Positions 1 to 10,827 are shown, numbered from the stretch's first letter. The stretch: 64,000 nucleotides of DNA from an uncultured Trueperaceae bacterium (GCA_963815215.1 CAWFFU010000008.1:1-64000); one strand, 5' to 3'. The notes: generated by a model from the letters alone, not told the origin. A program made the numbers and translations.

Positions 1-2
1 AG

Positions 3-89
3 GAAGCGCAGACCGAGCTGCGACAGCAGGCGGGCCGCCAGTTCGACCCGGACCTCATCGCCATCTTTCTGGAGCAGGTGCTCGACTAG
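3..89 (+). CDS. C-terminal end of an HD-GYP domain protein (partial, runs off window start)
   Basis: Frame from base 3 reads EAQTELRQQAGRQFDPDLIAIFLEQVLD*; the GxQFDP motif is typical of HD-GYP C-termini. Confidence 0.7.
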   Translation, partial: EAQTELRQQAGRQFDPDLIAIFLEQVLD

Positions 90-105
90 CACGCCCCCCA
101 ACGAG

Positions 106-567
106 CTACGCGACCCGCCACGGCAAGACCCCGCCCTCGTGATGCGTCGGGCCGGGATGCACCGGAAGTCCGGCATCCAGATCTTCGGGATGCACGTGCA
201 CGATGTGCACGCGTCCCTCGGTGTGGGTCTCGGTGAGCACCACGGCGTAGCGCGGAGACGGTGGGTCCATGTGCCCCTGGGGGTCGAGGTCGATCGCCGC
301 GCGGGCCTCCGTCTGCCAACCCGTCTCCAGGTCCGGCGCGTCTTCGACGGTGGTGACGAGCAGTTGCTGCGCCGCGCGTTCCAGCGGCGCCCCGCGCTCG
401 GGGTGTGGCATGACCAACCGCCCACCGCGGCCGGGCAGACCGGCGTACAGGCCGAGCATGGACGCCTCCACACCTTCGGCCAGTACGTTGCCGGCACCGG
501 CGATCAACAGCAGAACGATGGCGACGACAAGCTCGACGATCTTGCTGGCAGATAGTCGTTGACGCAT
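106..567 (-). CDS. Hypothetical secreted/membrane-anchored protein, His-rich C-terminus
   Basis: 153-aa ORF with GAGGAGG RBS upstream and a hydrophobic N-terminal segment (IVELVVAIVLLLIAGAGNVLA). Confidence 0.55.
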   Translation of the reverse strand: MRQRLSASKIVELVVAIVLLLIAGAGNVLAEGVEASMLGLYAGLPGRGGRLVMPHPERGAPLERAAQQLLVTTVEDAPDLETGWQTEARAAIDLDPQGHMDPPSPRYAVVLTETHTEGRVHIVHVHPEDLDAGLPVHPGPTHHEGGVLPWRVA

Positions 568-752
568 GCGGCCTCCTCAGGCTTCCGAGCGGAGCGCACG
601 CCGCCCGGAAAGGATGTGCCGATCACGCTAGGCAACGCCGCCATGAGAACCCCTGGAGGAGCCTGAACGCCGCGTATCACCGCCCACTCACGACGTCACA
701 CATGCGCACGGGAGCGGCAATCAGTGGCTCACGACCCTCCCATGCGAACCCT

Positions 753-1054
753 TCATGGAACCATCGGCGCGCACGATGCCCCAGACCGAAAATCGCGCTG
801 CCGCTCCACTCCGGAGGCGAACACGTCGATGGCACCCTCTAGAAGCTGCTTCTTCCACGCTCGGATCTGATTGACGTGCACGCCGTACTGCCGGCTCAGC
901 TCGGCGACGGTGCGCTCCTCCTTCGCTGCTTCCAGAGCGACCTTGGCCTTGAACTGCGGAGAGTGATTCCGACGCTGCTTCTTCACGTTGCTCCCCATCC
1001 CGGAAGACTACCGCTTCCGACCTAAGCCGGCTGTCCGGAATCCGGGGTCCACTT
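753..1054 (-). mobile_element. IS3-family remnant: left-IR-like sequence plus truncated OrfA
   Basis: ORF 753-998 RRNHSPQFKAKVALEAAKEERTVAELSRQYGVHVNQIRAWKKQL is an IS3 OrfA HTH; IR-like AAGTGGACCCCGGATTCCGGACAG at 1054-1031 lacks the terminal TG; no OrfB. Confidence 0.8.
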
Positions 1055-1146
1055 GTCTCTCACGAGACCAACCAGACCGAAGGCTGGGCGCCAGACCGCC
1101 GGGTCGCGCTGAAGGGCCGACCCAACCGCCAGCAATCACGTAAGGC

Positions 1147-1224
1147 GCCAGACCTTGACCACCTACCGAAGAACCGTCGCCCTACCAGCGGTAGTGCCAG
1201 TTGCCTAGTTTTTCTGTCCTACAC
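1147..1224. repeat. att-like imperfect direct repeat, copy 1 (core 1182-1198)
   Basis: Aligns over ~75 bp with 3218-3292; core CTACCAGCGGTAGTGCC is identical to 8301-8317. Confidence 0.9.
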
Positions 1225-1301
1225 GCGGATTCAGCGACTATCCTTCCGCCGTTGCGCTCTCGTCGTCAAGGCAGCATCTTGTCGTCACCGCCCACGGATC
1301 G

Positions 1302-2222
1302 TTACACGCTGACCCCGAGAACACCGGCGAGCGAGCGCACAAGGCGCGCCCGGGCTTCGGCACTGAGCTCGTCGAGATTCTGTCGGCGCCAACGCACCGC
1401 GGGCAGGTCTGGCGCGACATCGATCGCCAGAAGATCCCACTCGGGCTCACCGAGCTCGAACGACACCAGGAACTCGCGGTGCTCTTCCGGCATCTTCCCC
1501 ACCACCTCGCCAATGAGCGCCTCACGTGCATCGAGCAACGAGTCCAGCGTGACCGGGGCCGCCGTCATCCCCAGGAACCCCTGCTCGAAGATATCTGCGA
1601 TGTCCTTCCTCTGCGGGGCGAGGACTTCGACCATGGGACGGTTGTGGCTGATCAGGTAGACCACGAACGCTTGCCGTAACCGCATGTCAACACCCTCGTG
1701 CGCCAAGAGGTCCCGTACGTCGAAGAGATCGCGCGGATGCTGACGGTCCAAGGCCGCTACGATCTTCCCCGCATACAAGTCCTCGAACGACGCCACACGC
1801 ATCTCTCCGAACCCGAACGCCTCCTCGACCACGGCCGTCACCGAGCGCACCTCCGGATCGAAGACGCAGCCCCTCGACACGGGCGTCACCTCGATCTTCA
1901 CCTGAGCGTCTGCTTGCCTCACAACCAGCTTGGTGATCGCCCCTTCACGGGTGGCAGAAGCCTGGACTCGCGTCCCGGCGAGGCCACGCAAGATCCGTTC
2001 GCGCACACGCACGAGGGCACCCTCGATACCGGCCAGAGATACCTCCCGCGATTCCACCGGCAGATACGTGAGGTCGATGTCGACCGACAGCCGTGGCATG
2101 TCACGGACGAACAGATTGATGGCCGTGCCACCCTTCATGGCAAAGCAGTCCTCCGCCGCTAGCGCCGGCAGCGTGCGGATCAGCAGCCGGACCTGGCGCC
2201 TGAAGCGCTCCGTGAAGGGCAT
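1302..2222 (-). CDS. abiEii: AbiEii-family nucleotidyltransferase toxin (type IV TA)
   Basis: KGGTAINLF...RLSVDIDL, KIVAALDRQHPRDLFD motifs; start overlaps the antitoxin stop codon. Confidence 0.92.
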   Translation of the reverse strand: MPFTERFRRQVRLLIRTLPALAAEDCFAMKGGTAINLFVRDMPRLSVDIDLTYLPVESREVSLAGIEGALVRVRERILRGLAGTRVQASATREGAITKLVVRQADAQVKIEVTPVSRGCVFDPEVRSVTAVVEEAFGFGEMRVASFEDLYAGKIVAALDRQHPRDLFDVRDLLAHEGVDMRLRQAFVVYLISHNRPMVEVLAPQRKDIADIFEQGFLGMTAAPVTLDSLLDAREALIGEVVGKMPEEHREFLVSFELGEPEWDLLAIDVAPDLPAVRWRRQNLDELSAEARARLVRSLAGVLGVSV

Positions 2223-3067
2223 CAGGGTTCCTGGCCTAGCTCGGTCGGAACGGTGATCTGGTATTTCGGGTCCAGACGACCGTTGGTCGCCAGAACACGC
2301 TTACCGCTGCCGAGGTCGACCGAGGACTTGTCGAGCCCCTTCAACCACGCATGCTTGTGCCGGTCCGCGAAGAAGAAGAACAAGCGCTTCGCCTTCACAC
2401 GCTCGCAGCGCTCCAGCAAACGTTGCATGCGCCTTGGACTCAAGTCCGAGAGGCCTTCCATCACCACATCGACATGGTCAAAGGTCTCCCCCTTCGGCAA
2501 CGCGTCCATCAGCTCGAGGACAGCTCGTTCGGGAGACGAGAGGACAAGCGGCCACTCCCACTGTCCCCAGGCAACGGCACGGAGGCCTGCATGCTGCAGA
2601 CCTGCATCCTCCCCCGCCGGCCCCACACGGTCACCCAATGTCGGAAGCCTCAGGCGCTCCAGGTCGGCCCCGAACAGTGGCCTGCTGTTGTGGTAGCGGA
2701 AGTCCACCCCCAGGTCCAGTCTCGACAACCACGAAGGCGGACGAGCAAGACCGTAGAGGTGCACGGTAGATACCGACCGCGAAACGAAGTGGCCGTAGCC
2801 CTGGAACTCGAGAGACGTGCGTCCACCGACGAAAAGGCGCTTGCGCAACAACGCCTGCAGCGAGATGACAACCTGTTCCCACGAGAGCTCACCCCGTGGC
2901 CGCATGTAGACCGCGCGGGCGGGCCGCTTCAACCAGCCCCCCTTCAGGTACTGCGTGCGCAGCGCCGTCGAGTACCCATGCTCCGTCAGCCACGACGCAT
3001 CGACAACCAGGCCCTCAGGCAAATCCCGTTCGAGACGGTTTAACTTACCGCCTCTTTGCGCAGTCAT
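2222..3067 (-). CDS. abiEi: AbiEi-family antitoxin / transcriptional regulator (type IV TA)
   Basis: KLNRLERDLPEGLVVDASWL, GGRTSLEFQGYGHF, SSPERAVLE, VDLGSGKR motifs; start set at MTAQ (3067) because TACAAT lies 7 nt upstream. Confidence 0.9.
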   Translation of the reverse strand: MTAQRGGKLNRLERDLPEGLVVDASWLTEHGYSTALRTQYLKGGWLKRPARAVYMRPRGELSWEQVVISLQALLRKRLFVGGRTSLEFQGYGHFVSRSVSTVHLYGLARPPSWLSRLDLGVDFRYHNSRPLFGADLERLRLPTLGDRVGPAGEDAGLQHAGLRAVAWGQWEWPLVLSSPERAVLELMDALPKGETFDHVDVVMEGLSDLSPRRMQRLLERCERVKAKRLFFFFADRHKHAWLKGLDKSSVDLGSGKRVLATNGRLDPKYQITVPTELGQEP

Positions 3068-3074
3068 GCTTTGC

Positions 3075-3150
3075 ATTGTAGCAAACTCTCAAACCGGCTT
3101 GAGTTTGACACTCACCACATTTGCTAAGCCATGCTTTGCTAACCAAGCCA
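3075..3150 (-). promoter_or_regulatory. abiE promoter region: -10 TACAAT, inverted repeat and TTTGCTAA direct repeats
   Basis: TACAAT (3080-3075); CAAACTC...GAGTTTG IR at 3082-3107; TTTGCTAA at 3120 and 3135. Confidence 0.55.
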
Positions 3151-3217
3151 TCTCCGAACCAAGCCGGGGCTTCCCTACGGATTCTAGGCGAGGCGATCCG
3201 CGACGGGCACCGCCCAT

Positions 3218-3292
3218 GCCAGATGACCACCTGCAGAAGAATCATCGCCCTACCAGCGGTAGTGCCGATGGGCTAGTTTTTACGTCCCGCAC
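3218..3292. repeat. att-like imperfect direct repeat, copy 2 (core 3250-3266)
   Basis: GCCAGA-TGACCACCT..GAAGAA..TCGCCCTACCAGCGGTAGTGCC..CTAGTTTTT shared with 1147-1224; 18-bp identity with 8301-8318. Confidence 0.9.
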
Positions 3293-3674
3293 GGCGTTCC
3301 TGCGAACATTCCTTCGCCATCGGCATAGGGCCGTCAATCCCCAGGGCAAACGCGCACTGGCTTCCGGAAACAGGCTACCGAACTCTCCAGCACCGCCGCA
3401 TCAACACCGCCACCCTCACCGCCGATCATCTCTAGACTCGCGAACGGCCCTCGGCCCAAAAGACCGTCCTGCGGTAGCCCACCCGCGCATATCAGACGGA
3501 CACGCGTCAATAGAACCGACCAGCACGTCACCACGAACACCCTGATCATGAAGCGCTGCGACCCACCGGAGGTCACAGCCCTTCGACGCCCCCGACACGT
3601 ACGGTACTGTTCCGCCCGCTCGCTTCCTTGCTCGAGCGTTCCGTCCGCGCCCGTCATTTGACGGCGTTCCTCCG

Positions 3675-4040
3675 TCACAGCAAGCCCTGACGGAGCGCCT
3701 TGACCGCGGCCTGCGTACGGTCGGACGCAGCGAGCTTCTCCAAGATGTCCTGCACGTGCTTCTTCACCGTTCCCACACTGACGTCCAACCTCTCGGCGAT
3801 GTCCTTGTTGCTCAGGCCGTCGGCGACGGCGCGCAGCACCTCGAGCTCGCGCTGCGTCAGCGGCACGCTGCTCTCGCTCGGCTGCGCCATGCGGCTCAAC
3901 ACCACCTCCGCCACCTCCGGATCGAGATACGTAGCCCCCATCGCGGCGGCGCGGATCCCCAGCAGTAGCGACGCCGGATCCGACGCCTTCAGGCAGAACG
4001 CGTCGGCCCCCGACGCCATCGCCGCCAGCACCTCGTCGCT
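3675..4040 (-). pseudogene. NarL/LuxR-family response regulator, N-terminally truncated
   Basis: End of REC domain (GADAFCLK) plus LuxR HTH (PLTQRELEVLRAVADGLSNKDIAERLDVSVGTVKKHV); phospho-acceptor half missing. Confidence 0.8.
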
Positions 4041-4042
4041 CG

Positions 4043-4336
4043 ATGGCGCTCGCCTTTGCGCTCCGCGGGCATGCGCAGTTCTTCGCCATCGTGGGCTTTG
4101 TCAGCCTGCCGCTCCTCTTCGCCAGCAACGCCCTCGCACCTCTCGACGCCATGCCCGGCTGGCTCCAGCTCATCGCCCAAGCCAACCCCATGACTTACAC
4201 CATCACCGCTAGTCGCAGCCTCATCCTCGACGGACTGCAACCCAGTCTGCTCTTGACGACTCTCGCGGTGATCGCTGCATTTGATGCCCTGGCGGTGGCA
4301 GCGTGCCTCTGGGCGTTGCGGCGAACGACCGCCTGA
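4043..4336 (+). pseudogene. ABC-2 type permease, C-terminal fragment
   Basis: LPLLFASNALAPLDAMPGWLQLIAQANPMTY..SRSL is the C-terminal ABC-2 permease signature; only 97 aa. Confidence 0.8.
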
Positions 4337-4748
4337 GCGGAGGTGAGCGCACGCGCCGGCGGGGACGTGCCCCCGCAACGCAGCCAAAGCCGCCCTGCCG
4401 CCCTTGATTCAGGTGGACCCCTGAGGATCAAGAGCCCGACTCCTTTGACCCGGAGGCGACGTCCAGGGACACGGGTACATTCGGGCGAACGCAAGCATTC
4501 CCGTCAGGAGCATCAGCTTCTCGATCACAGAGCCACACCTGAGGGGCGACGCCCACTAGGAGCGCTCGACCACAACATGCCCAGCCAGACCCGGGCCAAG
4601 GACCCCGAAGCCCAAAGCGCCAACATCTCCGCCGCCTGGCTGAACCGACCCCCGAAGTCTCGCCAGTCCCAGGTGGTCTCATCGTCCGCGCCCGCCGGTT
4701 GTACGCCTTGCGTCAGGCTGGGCATGCGGCGCTCGGCCTTCGAGGCCG

Positions 4749-5741
4749 CTACGGTGCCTGCCGGCACCCCGGGGAGTCCGGGAATTCCTTATCCCGCGAG
4801 GCCTCGACCTTCACGCCGCGCGCTAGCAGCTCCTCCACGGCTGGCCATCCCATGCCGGGTAGGGCGCCGAGACAGTTCCGTTCCAGATTGATCTCGTACC
4901 CGCTCGTGAACGCCGGGTTGTCCGCCAACGGCGTCACATCCGCGATGAAGTTCCCGCTCAAGTTGAGCACCTTCGGTGGCTGCGCCCAGGACCGGAACAC
5001 GCTCACATCCGCGATTCGGTTCCCGCTCAGGTTGAGCACCCTTGGCGGCTGCGCCCAGTCCCGAAACGCACCCAGATCCTGGATGCTCGCCAGGCTAAGC
5101 CACAGGGAATCGAGCCCCAGGAGGCGTGTGAACGGCTCCAGGTTGCGGTACTGCAGCACGCCAGACCCGTACTCGCGTAGCCCCGTCAACCCCTCGAGCG
5201 GGGTGGCGTCCACCAACGTCGGATACAGCTCGTCGACATAGAGGAACTGCAGTTCCTTGAGATTGGAGAGCGGCGTGAGGTCGGTGATCTTGCCGCCCGT
5301 GAAGATCCACAGGTAGCGGAGCTTGGTGAGCTTCGCGAGCGGCGTGAGGTCGGAGAAGTCGTGATACGGGGTAGTGTTGCGGGGTGTGGGATAGGTGGAG
5401 AACTTCAGCCAGGTGAGGTTGGCGGCGTACTGCAGCCCCTCCAGCGAGCCCACGGTGTGGGGAGGGGATTGCAGCTCGAGGTGTGTCAGGCGCAGCATGT
5501 CCTCGCACGACAAGGTTGTCACCTCGCCATGGTCCATGGGTAGGCGTAGCGTGTCTTCGATGCCGTGCCGCAGGCCCGCATCGGGGATGGTGACATGCTC
5601 GCCTGGCTTGCAGGGTGGAGCGCCCTGGGCGAGTGCGGGCAACGCCAGCGCCAGCACCATGACCGCGACCACCGCCAGCGCGGGAACGCGTCTCTTAGGG
5701 CCTCGCCTAGCCCCAGCCCCCATGAATGAACGGGAATGCAT
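4749..5741 (-). CDS. Secreted leucine-rich repeat (internalin-like) protein
   Basis: Signal peptide (..LALALPALAQ), IPDAGLR cap, SLEGLQYAANLTWL, DLTPLAKLTKLRYL, LNLSGNRIADV LRRs; GGGGGA RBS before ATG 5741. Confidence 0.8.
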   Translation of the reverse strand: MHSRSFMGAGARRGPKRRVPALAVVAVMVLALALPALAQGAPPCKPGEHVTIPDAGLRHGIEDTLRLPMDHGEVTTLSCEDMLRLTHLELQSPPHTVGSLEGLQYAANLTWLKFSTYPTPRNTTPYHDFSDLTPLAKLTKLRYLWIFTGGKITDLTPLSNLKELQFLYVDELYPTLVDATPLEGLTGLREYGSGVLQYRNLEPFTRLLGLDSLWLSLASIQDLGAFRDWAQPPRVLNLSGNRIADVSVFRSWAQPPKVLNLSGNFIADVTPLADNPAFTSGYEINLERNCLGALPGMGWPAVEELLARGVKVEASRDKEFPDSPGCRQAP

Positions 5742-5846
5742 GTCAGGTCCCCCATCCGTTGGCCGCTCCGAGTCCACGATACGCCTCGGTCCGGGCTGAA
5801 CCGCCCCGGCTTTCCCGGAGAGTCGATTCCTTGAGAGGATGGCTTC

Positions 5847-6167
5847 ATGGGTTTCCAGGGCAGGTATCCGGCGGAGGTCAGGGAGCGGGCCGTGCGACTG
5901 GTGTTCGAGCAGCAGGGAGGCTACGACTCGCAATGGGAGGCGATCGTGAGCGTGGCCGAGAAGATCGGGTGCAGCTCGGACACGTTGCGGAAGTGGGTGC
6001 GGGCCGCTGAGCGTCAGCACGACCCTCAGGCGCAGGCTGTCGACGCTGAGCGCTCGCGCGTCAAGGCGTTGGAGCGGGAGAAGCGGGAGCTTCGGCAGGC
6101 GAACGAGATCTTACGGAAGGCGGCGGCGTTTTTCGCCCAGGCGGAGCTCGACCGCCAACCGAAGTGA
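5847..6167 (+). CDS. IS3-family transposase OrfA
   Basis: RYPAEVRERAVRLV...SVAEKIGCSSDTLRKWVR...ELRQANEILRKAAAFFAQAELDR. Confidence 0.92.
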   Translation: MGFQGRYPAEVRERAVRLVFEQQGGYDSQWEAIVSVAEKIGCSSDTLRKWVRAAERQHDPQAQAVDAERSRVKALEREKRELRQANEILRKAAAFFAQAELDRQPK

Positions 6168-6581
6168 TGGTCGCGTTCATCGACGATCACAGGAGCGCAT
6201 TCGGGGTCGAGTCGATCTGCCAGCAACTGCCTATCGCCCCGAGCACCTACTACGAGCGCAAGGCCAGGGAACGCGACCCGGAAAGGCTGCCGGAGCGCCA
6301 CCGGCCGGGACGCGCGCCTGCGTGAGGACGTCAGACGCGCGTTTCAGGCGAGCCGGGATCGTTACGGCGCGCGCAAGGTGTGGCGGCAGCTCCAGCGCGA
6401 CGGCCTCGAGGTGGCGCGCTGCACGGTGGAGCGCCTCATGCGCCTGGAGGGCCTGCAGGGCGTGAGCCGCGGCGGGGTCAAGCGCACCACCGTTCCCGAT
6501 CGGGAGGCTCAGGTGCCGGCGGACCTGGTGAACCGCGCCTTCCGAGCCAGCCGACCGAACCAGCTCTGGGTCACGGACCTG
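6167..6581 (+). pseudogene. IS3-family transposase OrfB, frameshifted near 6300 and interrupted at 6582
   Basis: MVAFIDDHRSAFGVESIC..IAPSTYY in one frame, then YGARKVWRQLQRDG..VARCTVERLMR..RPNQLWVTDL in another; homology stops after the first catalytic Asp. Confidence 0.85.
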
Positions 6582-7935
6582 GAGCGCCATGAGGCGCTGC
6601 AAGACCGTGCGGTGATGAGAGGGCACCGCCGTCAGTTCGTCGCAGCGGACTGAGTGAAGCTGGAGGCAGCCTGGCCGGTTGGGATGGACCGGTTGGGTGG
6701 AAGCAGCCTCGACAACGACGGGACGTCCTGGTACTGCGAGACGGGGCGGGCCCGGCAAGCGAGATGGGAAGGTGTACGTGAGGAACCAGCGTCTGGAAGC
6801 CTCTGAATACGACCCACCAGCTCTAACCTGGCGGATTTGGGCTGGGTTGCGGCGCGCACCCACACTGTGGGGAACTCCTTGGCCGGTTCATGTCGCTGGC
6901 GGGGAGGCCGCTCGGAAGCACTGCGGCGTACGAACGGCGATGCTGCGGGGGCATAGCTGGGCACCTAACCCGTCGAACGGTTTTGTGGTGAACATGGGAA
7001 CCATCCCGGTAGTCCCTCATTCGCGAGGGGAGGTCCATCGCCGACCGGCGCTACCGGAATGGGGCGGAGGACCCGTAGTAGTCGGGGGCCGGGAAAGCCG
7101 GCCACATGGCGAAGGGGTCCAGCAATCTCGTGGCGACAATGCAAACCGAGGAGGTCGCTGGTGAATACCGGCGCGTCGTGGCCGAGCCTCTCCGAGGCGG
7201 AGGCGCGAGTACTTGGACTGCAGACGAAGCTGCACCGTTGGGCGACCGTGGAATCTGGTCGCTCGTTCGATGACTTGTTCAACCTCGTGTGTGACCCTGC
7301 TTTTCTGCGCGTGGCGTGGGAGCGGGTCAGGGGCAACAAGGGAGCACGCACGGCAGGAGTGGACGGGCAAACCGCTCGCTCCATTGACGATGTTGGGGCG
7401 TTCCTGAACGGGTTGCGAGATGATCTCAAGGCCCGCAGGTTCGCTCCCGCCCGAGTGCGGGAGCGGATGATTCCCAAGCGAGACGGTAGGATGCGCCGTC
7501 TGGGAATCCCTACCGTAGCCGACCGGGTGGTGCAGGCTTCTTTGAAGCTGGTGCTCGAACCAGTCTTCGAGGCGGACTTCAAGCCGTGCAGTTACGGTTT
7601 CCGCCCGAAGCGCCGCGCTCAGGACGCCATCGCCGAGATTCACTTCTTCGCCTCCCGCCGTTACGAGTGGGTGCTGGAAGGGGACATCGAGGCGTGCTTC
7701 GACCAGATCGACCACACCGCCCTCATGGGTAGGGTGCGAGATCGGGTCGGGGACAAGCGCGTGCTGAGCCTGGTGAAGGCGTTCCTGCGCGCCGGAATCC
7801 TCAGCGAGGACGGCGTCAATAGGGACACGATTACCGGCACGCCCCAGGGCGGCATCCTCTCACCGCTGCTGGCCAATATCGCCCTGAACGTGCTCGATGA
7901 GCACTTCACCGTGAAGTGGGAAGCCAGCGGCCCGC
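6582..7935 (+). mobile_element. Group II intron, 5' part only (ribozyme domains plus truncated RT)
   Basis: ~580-nt non-coding segment starting where OrfB breaks, followed by intron-type RT; CCCGTAGTAGTCGGGGGCCGGGAAAGCCGGCCACATGGCGAAGGG resembles DIII; no DV/DVI seen. Confidence 0.82.
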
Positions 7936-7958
7936 TCGATGAGGTGAAGAAGTTGTAA
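7161..7958 (+). pseudogene. ltrA: Group II intron reverse transcriptase/maturase, truncated before YADD
   Basis: GAGGAGG RBS plus GTG; AWERVRGNKGARTAGVDG, RLGIPTVADRVVQ, SYGFRP, EGDIEACFD, GTPQGGILSPLLANIAL present; ends ..WEASGPLDEVKKL* without YADD or X domain. Confidence 0.9.
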
Positions 7959-8300
7959 TGCCAGACGATCACGATAGATGCTCCAAAGGGGCCCTCTAGG
8001 GGGGTTTGCGAGCAGTGTGTGTCGCGACCACAGCAATCGCCCAACGCGCACAGACAAGAAGTACACAGAGATGTACACAACTTGCACGCGAAATCAGCTC
8101 GCGCCACCAACCCGAACCGGAACGTCATGCGGGATCGCTCATCATCTTCCACCGGGCTGCAATGGGGCCCAAGCGGAAGGCTGTTAAAACGCCCGAAATT
8201 TCGACCCCGCGATGTTAAAATCCGCGGGGTCCAAACTCGGCCAGAAACGACATCTAGGACAGGGCACACCCTGATCTACCGGACGGGGAGAACACGTCCG

Positions 8301-8318
8301 CTACCAGCGGTAGTGCCG
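8301..8318. repeat. att-like core copy 3, equal to the 3' end and stop codon of amn
   Basis: CTACCAGCGGTAGTGCCG encodes RHYRW* on the minus strand. Confidence 0.9.
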
Positions 8319-9176
8319 GATGTGCTCCCCGCGCTCTGCGATCTGGCTCATGGCCTCGATGCCGACCTCGATGTGCCGGTCGGTGAACTCGCGGAACACC
8401 GCCCGAGCGGAGTCGCGGGTCTTGATGCCGCCGCGCTTCATCGGCAGGTCGGACACCAGTAGCAGCGCCCCTATTGGGACCTTGCTGGCGAAGCCCACGG
8501 AGAACAGCGTTGCCGTCTCCATGTCGATGGCCAGTGCTCTCTCGTCGTAGAGCTGCTGCTTGAAGCGCTCGTCGAACTCCCAGAAGCGGTAGTCGGTGCT
8601 GTGCACCACGCCGGTGCGGTAGTCCAGCCCGCGTTCGACGATGATCTGCGAGATGAACTTCTGCACCTTGAACGTCGGCAGGGCGGGCACCTGCGACGGC
8701 ATGAGGTGGCGCGACGCACCTTCGTCGCGGATGGCTGCGGTGGGCAGGATGAAGTCGCCGACCTCGAGCGAGCGGTGCAACCCTCCTGCCATCCCCAGGA
8801 ACAGCGTGGCCTTGGGCTCGGCCGTCGCCAGCACCTCGATGATGAGCGCGGCCACCGGCGAGCCTACCGAGAAGTTGACCAGCGACACGCCCTTGCGGGG
8901 GCTGTGCTTGACCGTCATGGCCGAGCCGCGAGTGGTCTCGGCGTCGTCGCACAGCACCGAGAAGCGCTCCATGTAGTACTCGAAGTTGGTGAGCAGGATC
9001 TGCTTCTGGAACTGCTCCGGCGCCGTCCCGGTGTAGCGCTCGAGCACCTCGCGACCGATGCGCCACTTCTCCGGGTTGTTGTAGATCAGGTTGGGATTGG
9101 CGGTGCGCGGCGAGGCGTCCTCATCCAGGGTCTCCCCTGCCGGGCGCGCGACCGTCATGTCGTCAGGCTGCTCCAT
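8301..9176 (-). CDS. amn: AMP nucleosidase (short PNP/UDP-fold type)
   Basis: LERYTG, ILLTNF, NFSVGSPVAAL, AAIRDEGAS, RFWEFD, AIDMETAT, LLLVSDLP. Confidence 0.88.
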   Translation of the reverse strand: MEQPDDMTVARPAGETLDEDASPRTANPNLIYNNPEKWRIGREVLERYTGTAPEQFQKQILLTNFEYYMERFSVLCDDAETTRGSAMTVKHSPRKGVSLVNFSVGSPVAALIIEVLATAEPKATLFLGMAGGLHRSLEVGDFILPTAAIRDEGASRHLMPSQVPALPTFKVQKFISQIIVERGLDYRTGVVHSTDYRFWEFDERFKQQLYDERALAIDMETATLFSVGFASKVPIGALLLVSDLPMKRGGIKTRDSARAVFREFTDRHIEVGIEAMSQIAERGEHIRHYRW

Positions 9177-9201
9177 AGGTCATGCTAGCGGTTGCGTTCG
9201 G

Positions 9202-10827
9202 TCAGGGCGTCAGGAAGGTCACCAGCGCCGCGTCCAGGCCTTCCGGAGCCGACGGCCCCCCGGTCGGAGCCTTGAGTCCGTCGGCCAGCGCCCGGGCCTC
9301 GTCGAGGTAGCGCGCGAAGTCCTCACTCGGCGCCGCCCTCGATCGCGCGATCGGTCGCCAGCTCGCGCTGTCGAAGCCGCACTCCGGCTCGGTGTCGGCC
9401 TCGTGCGTCCACGCTCCGGTGCTCCAGTCGAATCGGTAGAGCGGGACGAAGCGCCCGCCGTACTCGGCCACGAACGCCAGCGCGTCGAGAAGGAACGCGA
9501 AGGTCGTGTCGTCGATGGCGTAGTGGAAGCTGATGCGGCTCCAGCCCGGCCGCACCGCCTCGAAACCCGCTTCGATGGCGTCGTGGTAGGCGCGCGAGCG
9601 TTCGGCGTCGATGCCCAGCAGATCGTGGCCGTAGGGTCCGGCGCAGGAGCAGCCGGCCCGTCCCTGGATCCCGAAGAGGTCGTTGAGCAGGCGCGTCACG
9701 AAGCGCGGGTGGAGGATCCACGGGCCGCTGCGCACTTCGAACGACACCACCGCCAGCCTCGGGGCGTCGAGGTTGCCGAGCAGATGCACGTTGGGATGGT
9801 CCCGGAAGCGCTCGATCGCCGCGGCGATGAGCTGGCGTTCACGCTTCTCGATGCGCTTCACGCCGACGCGCTGCTTGACCTCGAAAGCCAGGGCCGCCCG
9901 CAGCTTCTGCAGGATGGCGGGCGTGCCCGCGTCCTCGCGGGCCTCGATGTCGTTGAGGAACCAGTGGCCCTGCGGGCTGACGTAGCTGACCGTGCCGCCG
10001 CCGGCGGTCGTCGGCACCGGCTGGTCGTAGAGCATCTGGTCGAACAGCAGCACGCCCGGCGAGCCCGGGCCCCCCAGGAACTTGTGCGGGCTGAGGAACA
10101 GGGCGTCGATGCCATCAAGCTCACCCGGGCGCACGTCGATGTCGACGTAGGGCGCGCTGGCGGCGTAGTCGAAGAAGGCGGCGGCCCCGTGCTCGTGCAA
10201 CAGCGTCGCCACCGCCCGCACGTCGGTGATGATGCCGGTGACGTTGCTGGCCGCGGAGAACGATCCGATCTTGGGACGGCCGTCGAATCTCGGGTCGTCG
10301 AGACCGCGCTTCAGCGCGCCCAGATCGATGCCGCCACGCTCGTCCAGGGGGATGGCGACGACCTCGGCCAGCGACTCGCGCCACGACAGCTCGTTGGAGT
10401 GATGCTCATACGGACCCACGAACACCACCGGCCGCTCCTCGGGCTCGAGCGCCGCCAGCACGCGTTCGCGCAGATTCGACGGCACCGCCAGCCCCAGGAT
10501 CTCCTGCATGCGCTTGACCGCGCCGGTGGTACCGCTGCCGGCGAACACCAGGCGGTAGCGCTCGTCGGCGCCGAGTTGTCGCTTGATGTAGGCGCTCGCC
10601 TCGTGCACCAGGTGGGTGGTGTACGCTCCGGTGGCGCTGTCCTCGGTATGGGTGTTGGCGTAGAGAGGCAGCACGCTGGCGCGCAGCCGCTCCTCCACCG
10701 ACGCCAGTGGGCGACCCGAAGCGATGTGGTCGGCGTAGGTGATCCGCCGCTCGCCGAAGGGCGTGCGCACGCACGCGTCGGCCCCTAGGATGTCGCCACG
10801 AAGTTCGCTCAAGACCGAACGCGACAC
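9202..10827 (-). CDS. Class V PLP aminotransferase / cysteine desulfurase-like
   Basis: TPFGERRITYADHIASGR, PYEHHSNE, SAASNVTG, FDYAA, SPHKFLGGPG, RAGCSCAGPYGH; GGAGG RBS before GTG 10827. Confidence 0.85.
   Translation of the reverse strand: MSRSVLSELRGDILGADACVRTPFGERRITYADHIASGRPLASVEERLRASVLPLYANTHTEDSATGAYTTHLVHEASAYIKRQLGADERYRLVFAGSGTTGAVKRMQEILGLAVPSNLRERVLAALEPEERPVVFVGPYEHHSNELSWRESLAEVVAIPLDERGGIDLGALKRGLDDPRFDGRPKIGSFSAASNVTGIITDVRAVATLLHEHGAAAFFDYAASAPYVDIDVRPGELDGIDALFLSPHKFLGGPGSPGVLLFDQMLYDQPVPTTAGGGTVSYVSPQGHWFLNDIEAREDAGTPAILQKLRAALAFEVKQRVGVKRIEKRERQLIAAAIERFRDHPNVHLLGNLDAPRLAVVSFEVRSGPWILHPRFVTRLLNDLFGIQGRAGCSCAGPYGHDLLGIDAERSRAYHDAIEAGFEAVRPGWSRISFHYAIDDTTFAFLLDALAFVAEYGGRFVPLYRFDWSTGAWTHEADTEPECGFDSASWRPIARSRAAPSEDFARYLDEARALADGLKAPTGGPSAPEGLDAALVTFLTP

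Follow-up and report, generated by a model that had tools for sequence, protein, structure and literature searches.

A co-oriented array of amn 3′ ends

The stretch of DNA analysed here (hereafter the window) spans the first 64,000 nucleotides of contig C8 (C8:1-64000) in the genome of an uncultured Trueperaceae bacterium (GCA_963815215.1 CAWFFU010000008.1), an assembly of 3.3 Mb in 14 contigs with 70% G+C. Near its start lie an AbiE toxin-antitoxin pair, a decayed region holding a leucine-rich repeat (LRR) gene, an IS3 insertion sequence and a group II intron fragment, and finally amn, which encodes a short-form AMP nucleosidase. These features are separated by three exact plus-strand copies of a 17-nt core, CTACCAGCGGTAGTGCC, located at 1182-1198, 3250-3266 and 8301-8317. 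No fourth match with two or fewer mismatches occurs in the window, and 100 shuffles yielded 0 matches. The spacing between successive cores is 2068 bp and then 5051 bp, and the third core is the 3′ end of amn itself, wherein the TAG stop codon is the reverse complement of 8301-8303.

The first two cores are embedded in a longer repeat. Positions 1156-1269 and 3224-3337 exhibit 73% ungapped identity over 114 nt, and a profile built from related sites matches both regions (1125-1273 and 3207-3352). The third core has the body of amn on one side and, on the other, a non-coding flank (8270-8300) that loosely resembles the left arm of copies 1 and 2; the site profile finds no match at 8270-8300. 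Our initial annotation had described precisely this arrangement, and each of its elements was confirmed: the three co-oriented 17-mers, the flanks common to copies 1 and 2, the third copy joined to the amn body with a loosely similar arm opposite (by alignment and by the NCBIfam model NF005500), and the modules of 2068 and 5051 bp. Pfam likewise agrees with the cargo named there, namely an AbiE pair, an LRR gene, an insertion sequence (IS3) and an intron (reverse transcriptase). Among 80 fetched amn loci, Bdellovibrionota among them, the encoded protein ends in RHYRW or RHYKW in 76, and the other four are cut at a contig end. This wide conservation implies a coding constraint on the core sequence at amn itself.

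Elsewhere in the genome there are two further exact 17-mers, at C3:1209059 and C3:1209878, which are co-oriented and lie no more than 2.7 kb from the end of contig C3. A profile search adds degenerate sites at C3:1208529 and C3:1199945, giving four sites on the last 12 kb of this contig. The five exact and two degenerate cores of the genome are therefore confined to the C3 end and the C8 start, and all share one orientation. Contig C3 terminates in the start of an IS3 orfA, and the first 90 nt of C8 are the end of an HD-GYP gene. In a related genome (G003), the homologous PAS/HD gene is split likewise between two contig ends, both of which bear sites, and GC skew in the source genome is negative and continuous through the C3 end and the C8 start. 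Given this shared split and continuous skew, we read the two contig ends as one array. The C3 end very probably abuts the window start, with the assembly gap falling inside the fourth of six cassettes when these are numbered from the end distal to amn. So assembled, the locus would be a single array of seven sites and six cassettes extending over at least 20 kb, wherein the window region represents the amn-proximal third. The suspicion in the initial annotation that a third module lay to the left of the first core was borne out, since the window begins at the C8 start and four further sites lie on the C3 end.

The cores also answer the objection that the repeat is dispersed throughout the genome, because they are confined to this co-oriented array, plus one remnant. 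That remnant, an orphan left arm with a degenerate core at C11:419102-419166 (nhmmer E 1e-06), is far from amn and has neither a right arm nor an adjoining amn-like gene. An assembly artefact is argued against by the presence of the same architecture in nine other species genomes and 24 metagenome loci, as well as by public sequencing data. Part of the stretch is contained in 18 public runs from 8 studies, as assembled contigs rather than reads, and contigs from four runs were compared with the window. Sites 1 and 3 are each spanned by independent contigs (1134-2305 and 8229-8523, respectively) that differ from the window at 0-1 positions, in support of the assembly.

Site anatomy and cassette exchange

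Alignment of 47 distinct full sites, from 10 genomes and metagenome loci, reveals a site of ~130 nt. A left arm of 26 nt is separated by a short spacer from the core, which covers the final five amn codons and the stop, and the right arm beyond it extends for 75 nt or more. The left arm, TTGACCACCyrCCGAAGAATCATCGC, is conserved in at least 90% of sites at most positions, as is the core. The spacer between them measures 1-2 nt, with 5-9 nt more in some sites. To the right of the core are ~8 variable nucleotides, CTAGTTTTTACGT, ~14 variable nucleotides and GCGAnnATTCTTnCG, which is followed in many sites by GCCGTCAAC. The two arms carry a 15-bp imperfect inverted repeat, CCGAAGAATCATCGC in the left arm and GCGAACATTCTTCCG in the right arm (consensus CsGAAGAATswTCGC), and an outer inverted repeat, GTTGAC/GTCAAC.

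The arm dyad is real as a sequence feature, as 75% of cells are paired compared with 31-46% when partner columns are slid. Evidence that pairing is maintained through compensatory change is lacking, in that 75.1% of cells are paired versus 74.9% after shuffling and the observed covariation score is attained in 98 of 500 shuffles. The consensus fold of the sites includes only a 5-bp helix (-3.7 kcal/mol), and an Rfam search of 1-9300 with E values up to 1 matched only the IS3 frameshift pseudoknot, with nothing at the sites. A folded, attC-like hairpin was rejected given this short consensus helix and the lack of covariation in the explicit arm pairing. We read the arm repeats instead as two inverted, predicted protein-binding (arm-type) sites, as in the arms of lambda-type attP.

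The family-wide distribution of the sites was assessed in 128 Trueperaceae species genomes, wherein the unpublished G130 enters only as one genome searched. BLAST with site 2 (3218-3345) gave matches in 12 genomes, 10 of them clear and 2 marginal. The clear carriers are 8 of the 10 genomes of the window's genus, the source included, and one genome in each of two other genera. Among the amn loci of the species-genome collection, 4 of the best 80 bear sites, and a metagenome scan with the left arm and core recovered 24 loci, which were seen with 2 kb on either side of the sites.

Complete site-to-site cassettes (n=34) range from 513 to 13583 bp, and the same cassettes recur at different positions and beside different neighbours. 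An AbiE (AbiEi_1) cassette is first from amn in G019 and second in both G033 and G006. A MazEF cassette is first from amn in G033 and is fused to HigBA in G003, and HigBA occupies the most distal cassette in G033 and the fourth from amn in the source genome. Whole cassettes align core to core (G006_c2 versus G033_c3, 2144 nt of 2130/2152). This disposes of the objection that cargo boundaries in relatives might not coincide with the cores.

Shared cassettes are consistently more alike than the core genes that adjoin the arrays. Identity is 96.3% for the AbiE cassettes of G019 and G033 (adjoining core genes, 83.1%) and 86.3% for those of G006 and G033 (75.5%). The G003-G033 pair gives 96.4% for MazEF and 93.4% for HigBA (both 80.5%), and window positions 1-1181 give 98.2% between the source genome (G000) and G003 (85.6%). 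That the cassettes are 86-98% identical and the core genes 75-86% points to exchange between species and genera.

The position at which cassettes are exchanged can be narrowed by comparing junctions. A right arm followed by an NHL/PAS-HD cargo is found after three distinct left arms and neighbours, encoding HigBA, VapBC and an FG-GAP protein (G000, G003 and G004), and near-identity at these junctions starts ~8 nt past the core. One right arm joined to three left arms places the junction between the left-arm end and ~8 nt past the core. When the AbiE (AbiEi_1) cassettes of G033 and metagenome locus L168 are compared, everything from the right half of the core onward is common, and the left arm, spacer and stop triplet differ. 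These left-arm swaps, together with the core-to-core alignments, put the junction inside or directly beside the core. In three genomes lacking an array (G012, G015 and G029), the core is present at the amn end and unrelated DNA takes the place of the left arm. As empty amn ends share the core only, the chromosomal site appears to be the core alone, and the left arm that adjoins amn belongs to the cassette. Direct repeats bearing the 3′ end of the target gene bound the inserted DNA, as for an integrative element at a gene 3′ end. An in-frame stop triplet is present in 47 of 51 distinct cassette-borne sites (TAG in 22, TGA in 22 and TAA in 3), which fits a crossover upstream of the stop, wherein the cassette would supply the stop codon.

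The cargo of the arrays includes toxin-antitoxin systems (AbiE of two types, HigBA, MazEF, VapBC and RES-Xre), arsenic and copper resistance, a multicopper oxidase, a BBE oxidase and a beta-lactamase-family protein, two-component and ABC systems with GGDEF/EAL proteins, and secreted repeat proteins (NHL, SBBP, FG-GAP and LRR). Most of this cargo appears to consist of addiction or defence modules that are self-expressed, of resistance genes for arsenic and copper, and of secreted repeat proteins. A 160-212-aa protein family without a Pfam match recurs as a single-gene cassette in three genomes and two metagenome loci (L034:7242-7724, L036:2868-3485, L142:2785-3402, L150:1184-1666 and L168:1648-2286).

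Table 1. Sites, cassettes and genes of the amn array in the source genome, listed toward amn (window positions unless a contig is named).
Feature	Position	Strand	Details
Cassette 1 (most distal)			Arsenic-resistance operon fused to VapBC; 8.5 kb
Cassette 2			0.5-kb unit, one ORF
Cassette 3			HigBA; 0.8 kb
Cassette 4	starts C3:1209895		NHL-repeat protein, IS3, contig gap, PAS/HD-GYP gene, 153-aa ORF
Cassette 4, right-hand part	1..1181	mixed	HD-GYP C-terminal end 1-90 (+)
153-aa ORF, cassette 4	106-567	-	No Pfam family
IS3 orfA remnant, cassette 4	753-998	-	Pfam HTH_Tnp_1
Site 1	1125..1273	+	Left arm 1156-1181, core 1182-1198, right arm 1199-~1273; nhmmer E 9e-36
Cassette 5 (AbiE type IV toxin-antitoxin)	1199..3249	-	AbiEii 1302-2222, AbiEi 2222-3076, both reading in amn direction
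Site 2	3207..3352	+	Left arm 3224-3249, core 3250-3266, right arm 3267-~3352; nhmmer E 1.5e-38
Cassette 6, decayed	3267..8300	mixed	5.05 kb; Pfam, Rfam
LuxR-type regulator fragment, cassette 6	3675-4031	-	
ABC-2 permease fragment, cassette 6	4043-4336	+	
LRR protein, cassette 6	4749-6020	-	
IS3 orfA, cassette 6	5847-6167	+	
IS3 frameshift pseudoknot	6125-6241		Rfam ALIL, 97 bits
IS3 orfB fragment			Cut at ~6577 by 5′ fragment of group II intron
Group II intron reverse transcriptase ORF, truncated	7059-7958		RVT_1 positions 1-144 of 205
Core copy 3	8301..8317	+	Last five amn codons (RHYRW) and stop; proposed chromosomal attachment site
amn (short-form AMP nucleosidase, 291 aa)	8301..9176	-	NCBIfam NF005500 318.2 bits, cut-off 264; Pfam PNP_UDP_1

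The features of the source array are collected in Table 1, wherein the nhmmer values derive from a profile built from 27 sites. Window positions 1-1181 match locus L035 of G003 over 923 nt. Within the 2068-bp module, adjacent AbiEi and AbiEii genes both exceed their Pfam cut-offs, as is expected for a type IV AbiE system (AbiEii, 2.2e-41 and 142.8 bits against a cut-off of 22.5; AbiEi_3, 1.9e-38 and 131.9 bits; AbiEi_3_N, 6.1e-25 and 87.5 bits against a cut-off of 26). This cassette is also present in G007 (93.9% over 1972 nt), and an AbiEi_3/AbiEii pair occurs on metagenome locus L166. An acetyltransferase fragment considered as the product of the 0.5-kb cassette on C3 had no Pfam support.

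In cassette 6, the LuxR-type fragment and the oppositely oriented ABC-2 fragment (3675-4336) appear to be the residue of a cassette for a two-component system and ABC transporter, which is intact in G005 (L041:341-3765) and G004 (L039:2928-6350). The LRR gene holds a 69-bp tandem duplication (4934-5071, 83% identity). In run X2, a single contig jumps from 4949 to 5019 and so omits exactly 69 bp, a sign that the LRR protein may be polymorphic in repeat number. The IS3 copy seems to carry an extra base, as all four runs are without one base at 6305, and contigs of three runs diverge from the window beyond 6577. Beyond the intron open reading frame (ORF) come 310 nt of non-coding DNA and then the degenerate left arm at 8270-8300.

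Recombinases and the origin of the array

We consider it probable that the array formed by serial site-specific integration at the amn 3′ end, wherein non-autonomous cassettes would be inserted by a recombinase provided in trans. The chromosomal site would be the end of the amn reading frame, i.e., the core, and a circular form of each cassette would carry an attP-like site composed of right arm, core and left arm. Crossover within the core would insert the cassette beside amn, regenerate the amn end from cassette DNA and push older cassettes outward. Insertion in this manner would make the internal junctions hybrids of one cassette's left arm, the core and the next cassette's right arm. It also predicts that cores decay with distance from amn, as is seen in the source genome, where core mismatches outward from amn number 0, 0, 0, 0, 0, 2 and 4; a like trend is present in G033, G003 and G004. 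The site anatomy, the confinement to one locus, the modularity, the exchange between genomes and the lack of a linked recombinase are seen directly in the sequences; the circular intermediate, crossover in the core, insertion beside amn and the class of the recombinase, which would be encoded outside the array, are predictions of this model. The proposal in the initial annotation that amn is a hotspot for integrase-free cassettes is thus supported as regards the cassette boundaries and the restriction to one locus; that the cassettes are mobilised in trans we infer.

A total of 319 ORFs from array loci (15, 126, 57, 78 and 43) were scanned with Pfam, and this search detected no tyrosine or serine recombinase, relaxase or transfer family, and no transposase except that of the window's IS3. 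These ORFs were chosen by a GC3-based picker with a minimum of 60-70 aa. Because they came from our own picker, six-frame searches of whole genomes were added. The serine recombinase family PF00239 had 0 matches in all 10 array genomes, and PF00589 had 1-7 matches per genome, none in or beside any array. The nearest PF00589 matches are ~27 kb from amn on the flank opposite the cassettes (G033) and ~360 kb from the array (G019), in each case on the same contig. The earlier statement that the window has no recombinase is therefore correct for these two families, which had no six-frame match on C8, but it does hold an IS3 transposase and a group II intron reverse transcriptase in truncated form; the suggestion to look for recombinases beside amn in relatives was followed through the 10 genomes with the result just given. 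Clustering of the 68 ORFs without a Pfam match revealed no array-wide family that could be a hidden recombinase, the largest cluster (n=5) being the 160-212-aa family. Searches of viral contigs, phage records and plasmid records with the site gave 0 matches.

Other recombination genes were evaluated and set aside. The phage-type integrases of the source genome and G003 each adjoin a tRNA gene and have no orthologue of at least 40% identity in the other array genomes. An Xer-like paralogue, clade B (~46% identical to the clade A protein described below), is absent from G000, G003, G004 and G019 and is common in array-less genera; its occurrence is patchy, as it is found in most genera and is missing from these four genomes at 81-97% completeness. 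At the end of an array contig in G005 (G005:C4; L141:16195-16596), just distal to the last site, is an ORF of the excisionase family (123 aa, TIGR01764, 34 bits). It is followed by the overlapping start of another ORF (MSRGRAKIRLV..., 11 codons) that is cut by the contig end. The excisionase-family ORF was rejected as a general factor because it is present in only 1 of the 128 family genomes.

Several observations weigh against serial integration in trans. No recombinase could be tied to the sites among the array ORFs or in the 10 genomes, and the GC3-based picker could miss short or atypical genes. The genomes are metagenome-assembled and may lack plasmids or phages that code for the enzyme; its gene may sit on an unbinned replicon or have been lost from the source genome. 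Two haplotypes, which differ in the spacer as well, account for most of the stop triplets, so that shared descent would fit them as well as selection would. In the source genome, the left arm next to amn has degenerated, and fragments, an insertion sequence and an intron fill cassette 6; the array there may now be inactive. No circular molecule and no same-strain empty-site molecule was found among the assembled contigs of four runs, which by their nature cannot show circles, and contig depth at amn and the cassettes is unsuitable as a measure of copy number. A joint of 3251->8303 in two of the four runs (X1 and X7) skips exactly the 5051-bp cassette, but its shorter side is 28 nt, approximately the length of the left arm. 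It may stem from a relative with a canonical left arm by amn, and we do not count it as excision. Another joint, 1226->3224 in run X1, also has a 28-nt side and may come from relatives.

The cassettes could instead be decayed autonomous elements, such as phages, integrative and conjugative elements (ICEs) or integrative and mobilizable elements at amn, that lost their integrase after tandem integration and are mobile only beside an intact relative, in the manner of cis-mobilizable elements (CIMEs). Both CIME accretion beside ICEs and phage attachment at amn have precedents in print, which are taken up below. The excisionase-family ORF and cut ORF start of G005 point the same way, and fusions and site erosion are common, for example in G003 (MazEF with HigBA) and G000 (ars with VapBC). 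This explanation is nevertheless unlikely. The 10 genomes and 24 metagenome loci include no integrase-bearing member, the excisionase is confined to a single genome and the site is unmatched in viral, phage and plasmid records. Furthermore, many cassettes are single operons of 0.5-1 kb with exact site bounds that are intact in several genomes, unlike the products of random deletion. The repeats might also act as portable homology, such that RecA-dependent shuffling, e.g., during natural transformation, has operated across the ~130-nt junctions after one or more ancient integrations, with arms that may insulate transcription. The junctions are long and conserved enough for homologous exchange, and the searches detected no dedicated enzyme. 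Some neighbouring cassettes have been fused by deletion, and the inverted repeat is without covariation. We doubt this account, as it leaves unexplained why unrelated cargo carries identical arms in the same orientation, why a copy of the amn end is present at every junction, and why conservation of at least 90% persists at most left-arm positions between genera with 75-86% identity in their core genes. Array-less relatives, in which the empty amn end shares the core only, also speak against it.

A host enzyme was considered as well. The source genome encodes a divergent Xer-like tyrosine recombinase of 353 aa (SAM_1 and Phage_integrase domains; C3:330582-331670 with its palindrome), which is also found on loci L138, L140, L174, L177, L179 and L184, and which scores far under the NCBIfam cut-offs for XerC, XerD, XerS and XerA. 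Directly abutting the gene is a 28-bp palindrome, ACCTGATAA-6 nt-TTATCAGGT (C3:330582-330609). Of the 8 genomes in which this lineage (clade A) was checked, 7 keep the palindrome, and in the source genome it lies at a GC-skew sign change (C3 ~330-340 kb). Gene and palindrome look like a single-recombinase Xer/dif module with dif beside the gene. Members of clade A are present in G000, G003, G004, G005, G006, G007 and G019 at 73-92% identity. Matches in G002 and G008 resemble members, that of G002 lying beside the same palindrome, and no clear orthologue was placed for G033. If this conserved protein moved the cassettes, the array would resemble those of integrative mobile elements exploiting Xer (IMEX) or of dif modules. 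Among the tyrosine recombinase lineages, only clade A was found in seven of the ten array genomes, and in G004 (81% complete) it was the sole tyrosine recombinase detected. We give this idea little weight, since the gene has its own palindrome at the skew switch, which shows no likeness to the amn core or arms, and since the skew around the amn locus is uniformly negative, so that the locus is not at dif; many array-less genomes also list clade-A-like matches (40-53% to a clade B query), their clade being unconfirmed. That the array is the remnant of a true integron, a cluster of attC sites without an integrase, is the least probable explanation and can be virtually dismissed. It would account for a co-oriented array of small, toxin-antitoxin-rich cassettes and for ~130-nt junction sites with an inverted repeat. 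However, the best TIGR02249 (integron integrase) score in the source genome is 42.5 bits against a cut-off of 265, and the Xer-like protein scores 55.7 bits. The exchange point is in mid-site, within the core, and not at a site edge, and the site is conserved in sequence with no compensatory changes.

Relation to known systems

Although the initial annotation knew of no described attachment site at amn, AMP nucleosidase genes are listed in PMC5247547 as one of two integration sites described for Burkholderia cepacia complex phages. The kind of target gene is the same. Those are integrase-encoding prophages in another phylum, and the Burkholderia enzyme is of the long form.

The CIMEs of streptococcal ICE families have, according to the passages on them in PMC6323972, lost their integration and transfer genes, retain attL and attR intact and accrete in tandem with ICEs. 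Similar to the cassettes at amn, they are integrase-free, att-flanked units in tandem at the 3′ end of a protein gene, where the repeats regenerate that end. The amn cassettes, too, have att-like repeats and are without integration or transfer genes, as judged from the 319 ORFs and the six-frame searches, and these same searches found no recombinase encoded within the element. They differ in that searches of the 10 genomes, the 24 metagenome loci and the viral, phage and plasmid records detected no autonomous partner using the same site, which is not proof of its absence. In addition, the arrays have up to six or more units, many of them operons of 0.5-2 kb, that are shared between genera. In the Prochlorococcus tycheposon islands, successive integrations at the same site push elements outward and leave partial target copies and degenerated remnants (bioRxiv 10.1101/2020.12.28.424599). 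The amn array has the same features; the tycheposon targets are tRNA genes and integrases are present, in contrast to the protein gene and integrase-free units described here. As far as these two accounts go, CIMEs and tycheposons have integrase-bearing relatives at the same site and do not consist of many single-operon units. IMEX and dif-module arrays share with the amn array non-autonomous modules bounded by short sites and depend on a host recombinase, but the amn array does not coincide with the skew switch, and the dif-like palindrome bears no likeness to its core.

Among the open-access papers listed in the literature searches, none reports such an array in Deinococcota. What appears to be new, from comparison of the genomes, is a site-specific cassette array with no linked recombinase and with a new, sequence-defined site. 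It is conceivable, and we propose it only tentatively, that some Trueperaceae (Deinococcota) hold an independently evolved capture platform analogous to an integron. Such a platform would use the amn end as its site, circular integrase-less cassettes with a ~130-bp site, and an unlinked recombinase of a possibly unrecognised kind, and its cassettes, bearing genes for defence, addiction and metal resistance, would circulate between genera. To our knowledge, integrons are the only well-understood system that piles many recombinase-free cassettes at one chromosomal site. If the proposal is correct, then a second system with this logic, at a different site and in a different phylum, would indicate that such organisation evolved more than once. 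It would also provide a compact new pair of site and recombinase to seek, the missing recombinase being a concrete gap, and would account for the movement of defence, toxin-antitoxin and metal-resistance genes among these bacteria of soil and sediment, in which classical mobile elements appear to be few (1-7 PF00589 matches and no PF00239 match per array-bearing genome searched).

The closest resemblance is to integrons and to clusters of attC sites lacking integrases (CALINs), as these are defined in PMC4889954. Like them, the amn arrays are co-oriented and restricted to one locus, with small, promoter-independent or self-expressed cassettes, many of which encode toxin-antitoxin systems and none of which carries its own recombinase, and with a site on the order of ~100 nt. 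Insertion seemingly takes place at the end beside a fixed chromosomal site, with distal decay of the older cassettes. In integrons, exchange at attC occurs at the outer R box. The structure-defined hairpin, low sequence conservation and R-box exchange of attC were not observed at the amn sites, as judged by alignment, consensus folding, arm covariation and the mapped junction. The amn array differs further in that it has no IntI, that its sites are conserved in sequence rather than in structure, that its exchange point is central and within a coding 3′ end, and that its fixed site is the end of a housekeeping gene rather than an attI by an integrase gene. Judged by these features of sequence, the array is integron-like in its logic and is not an integron.

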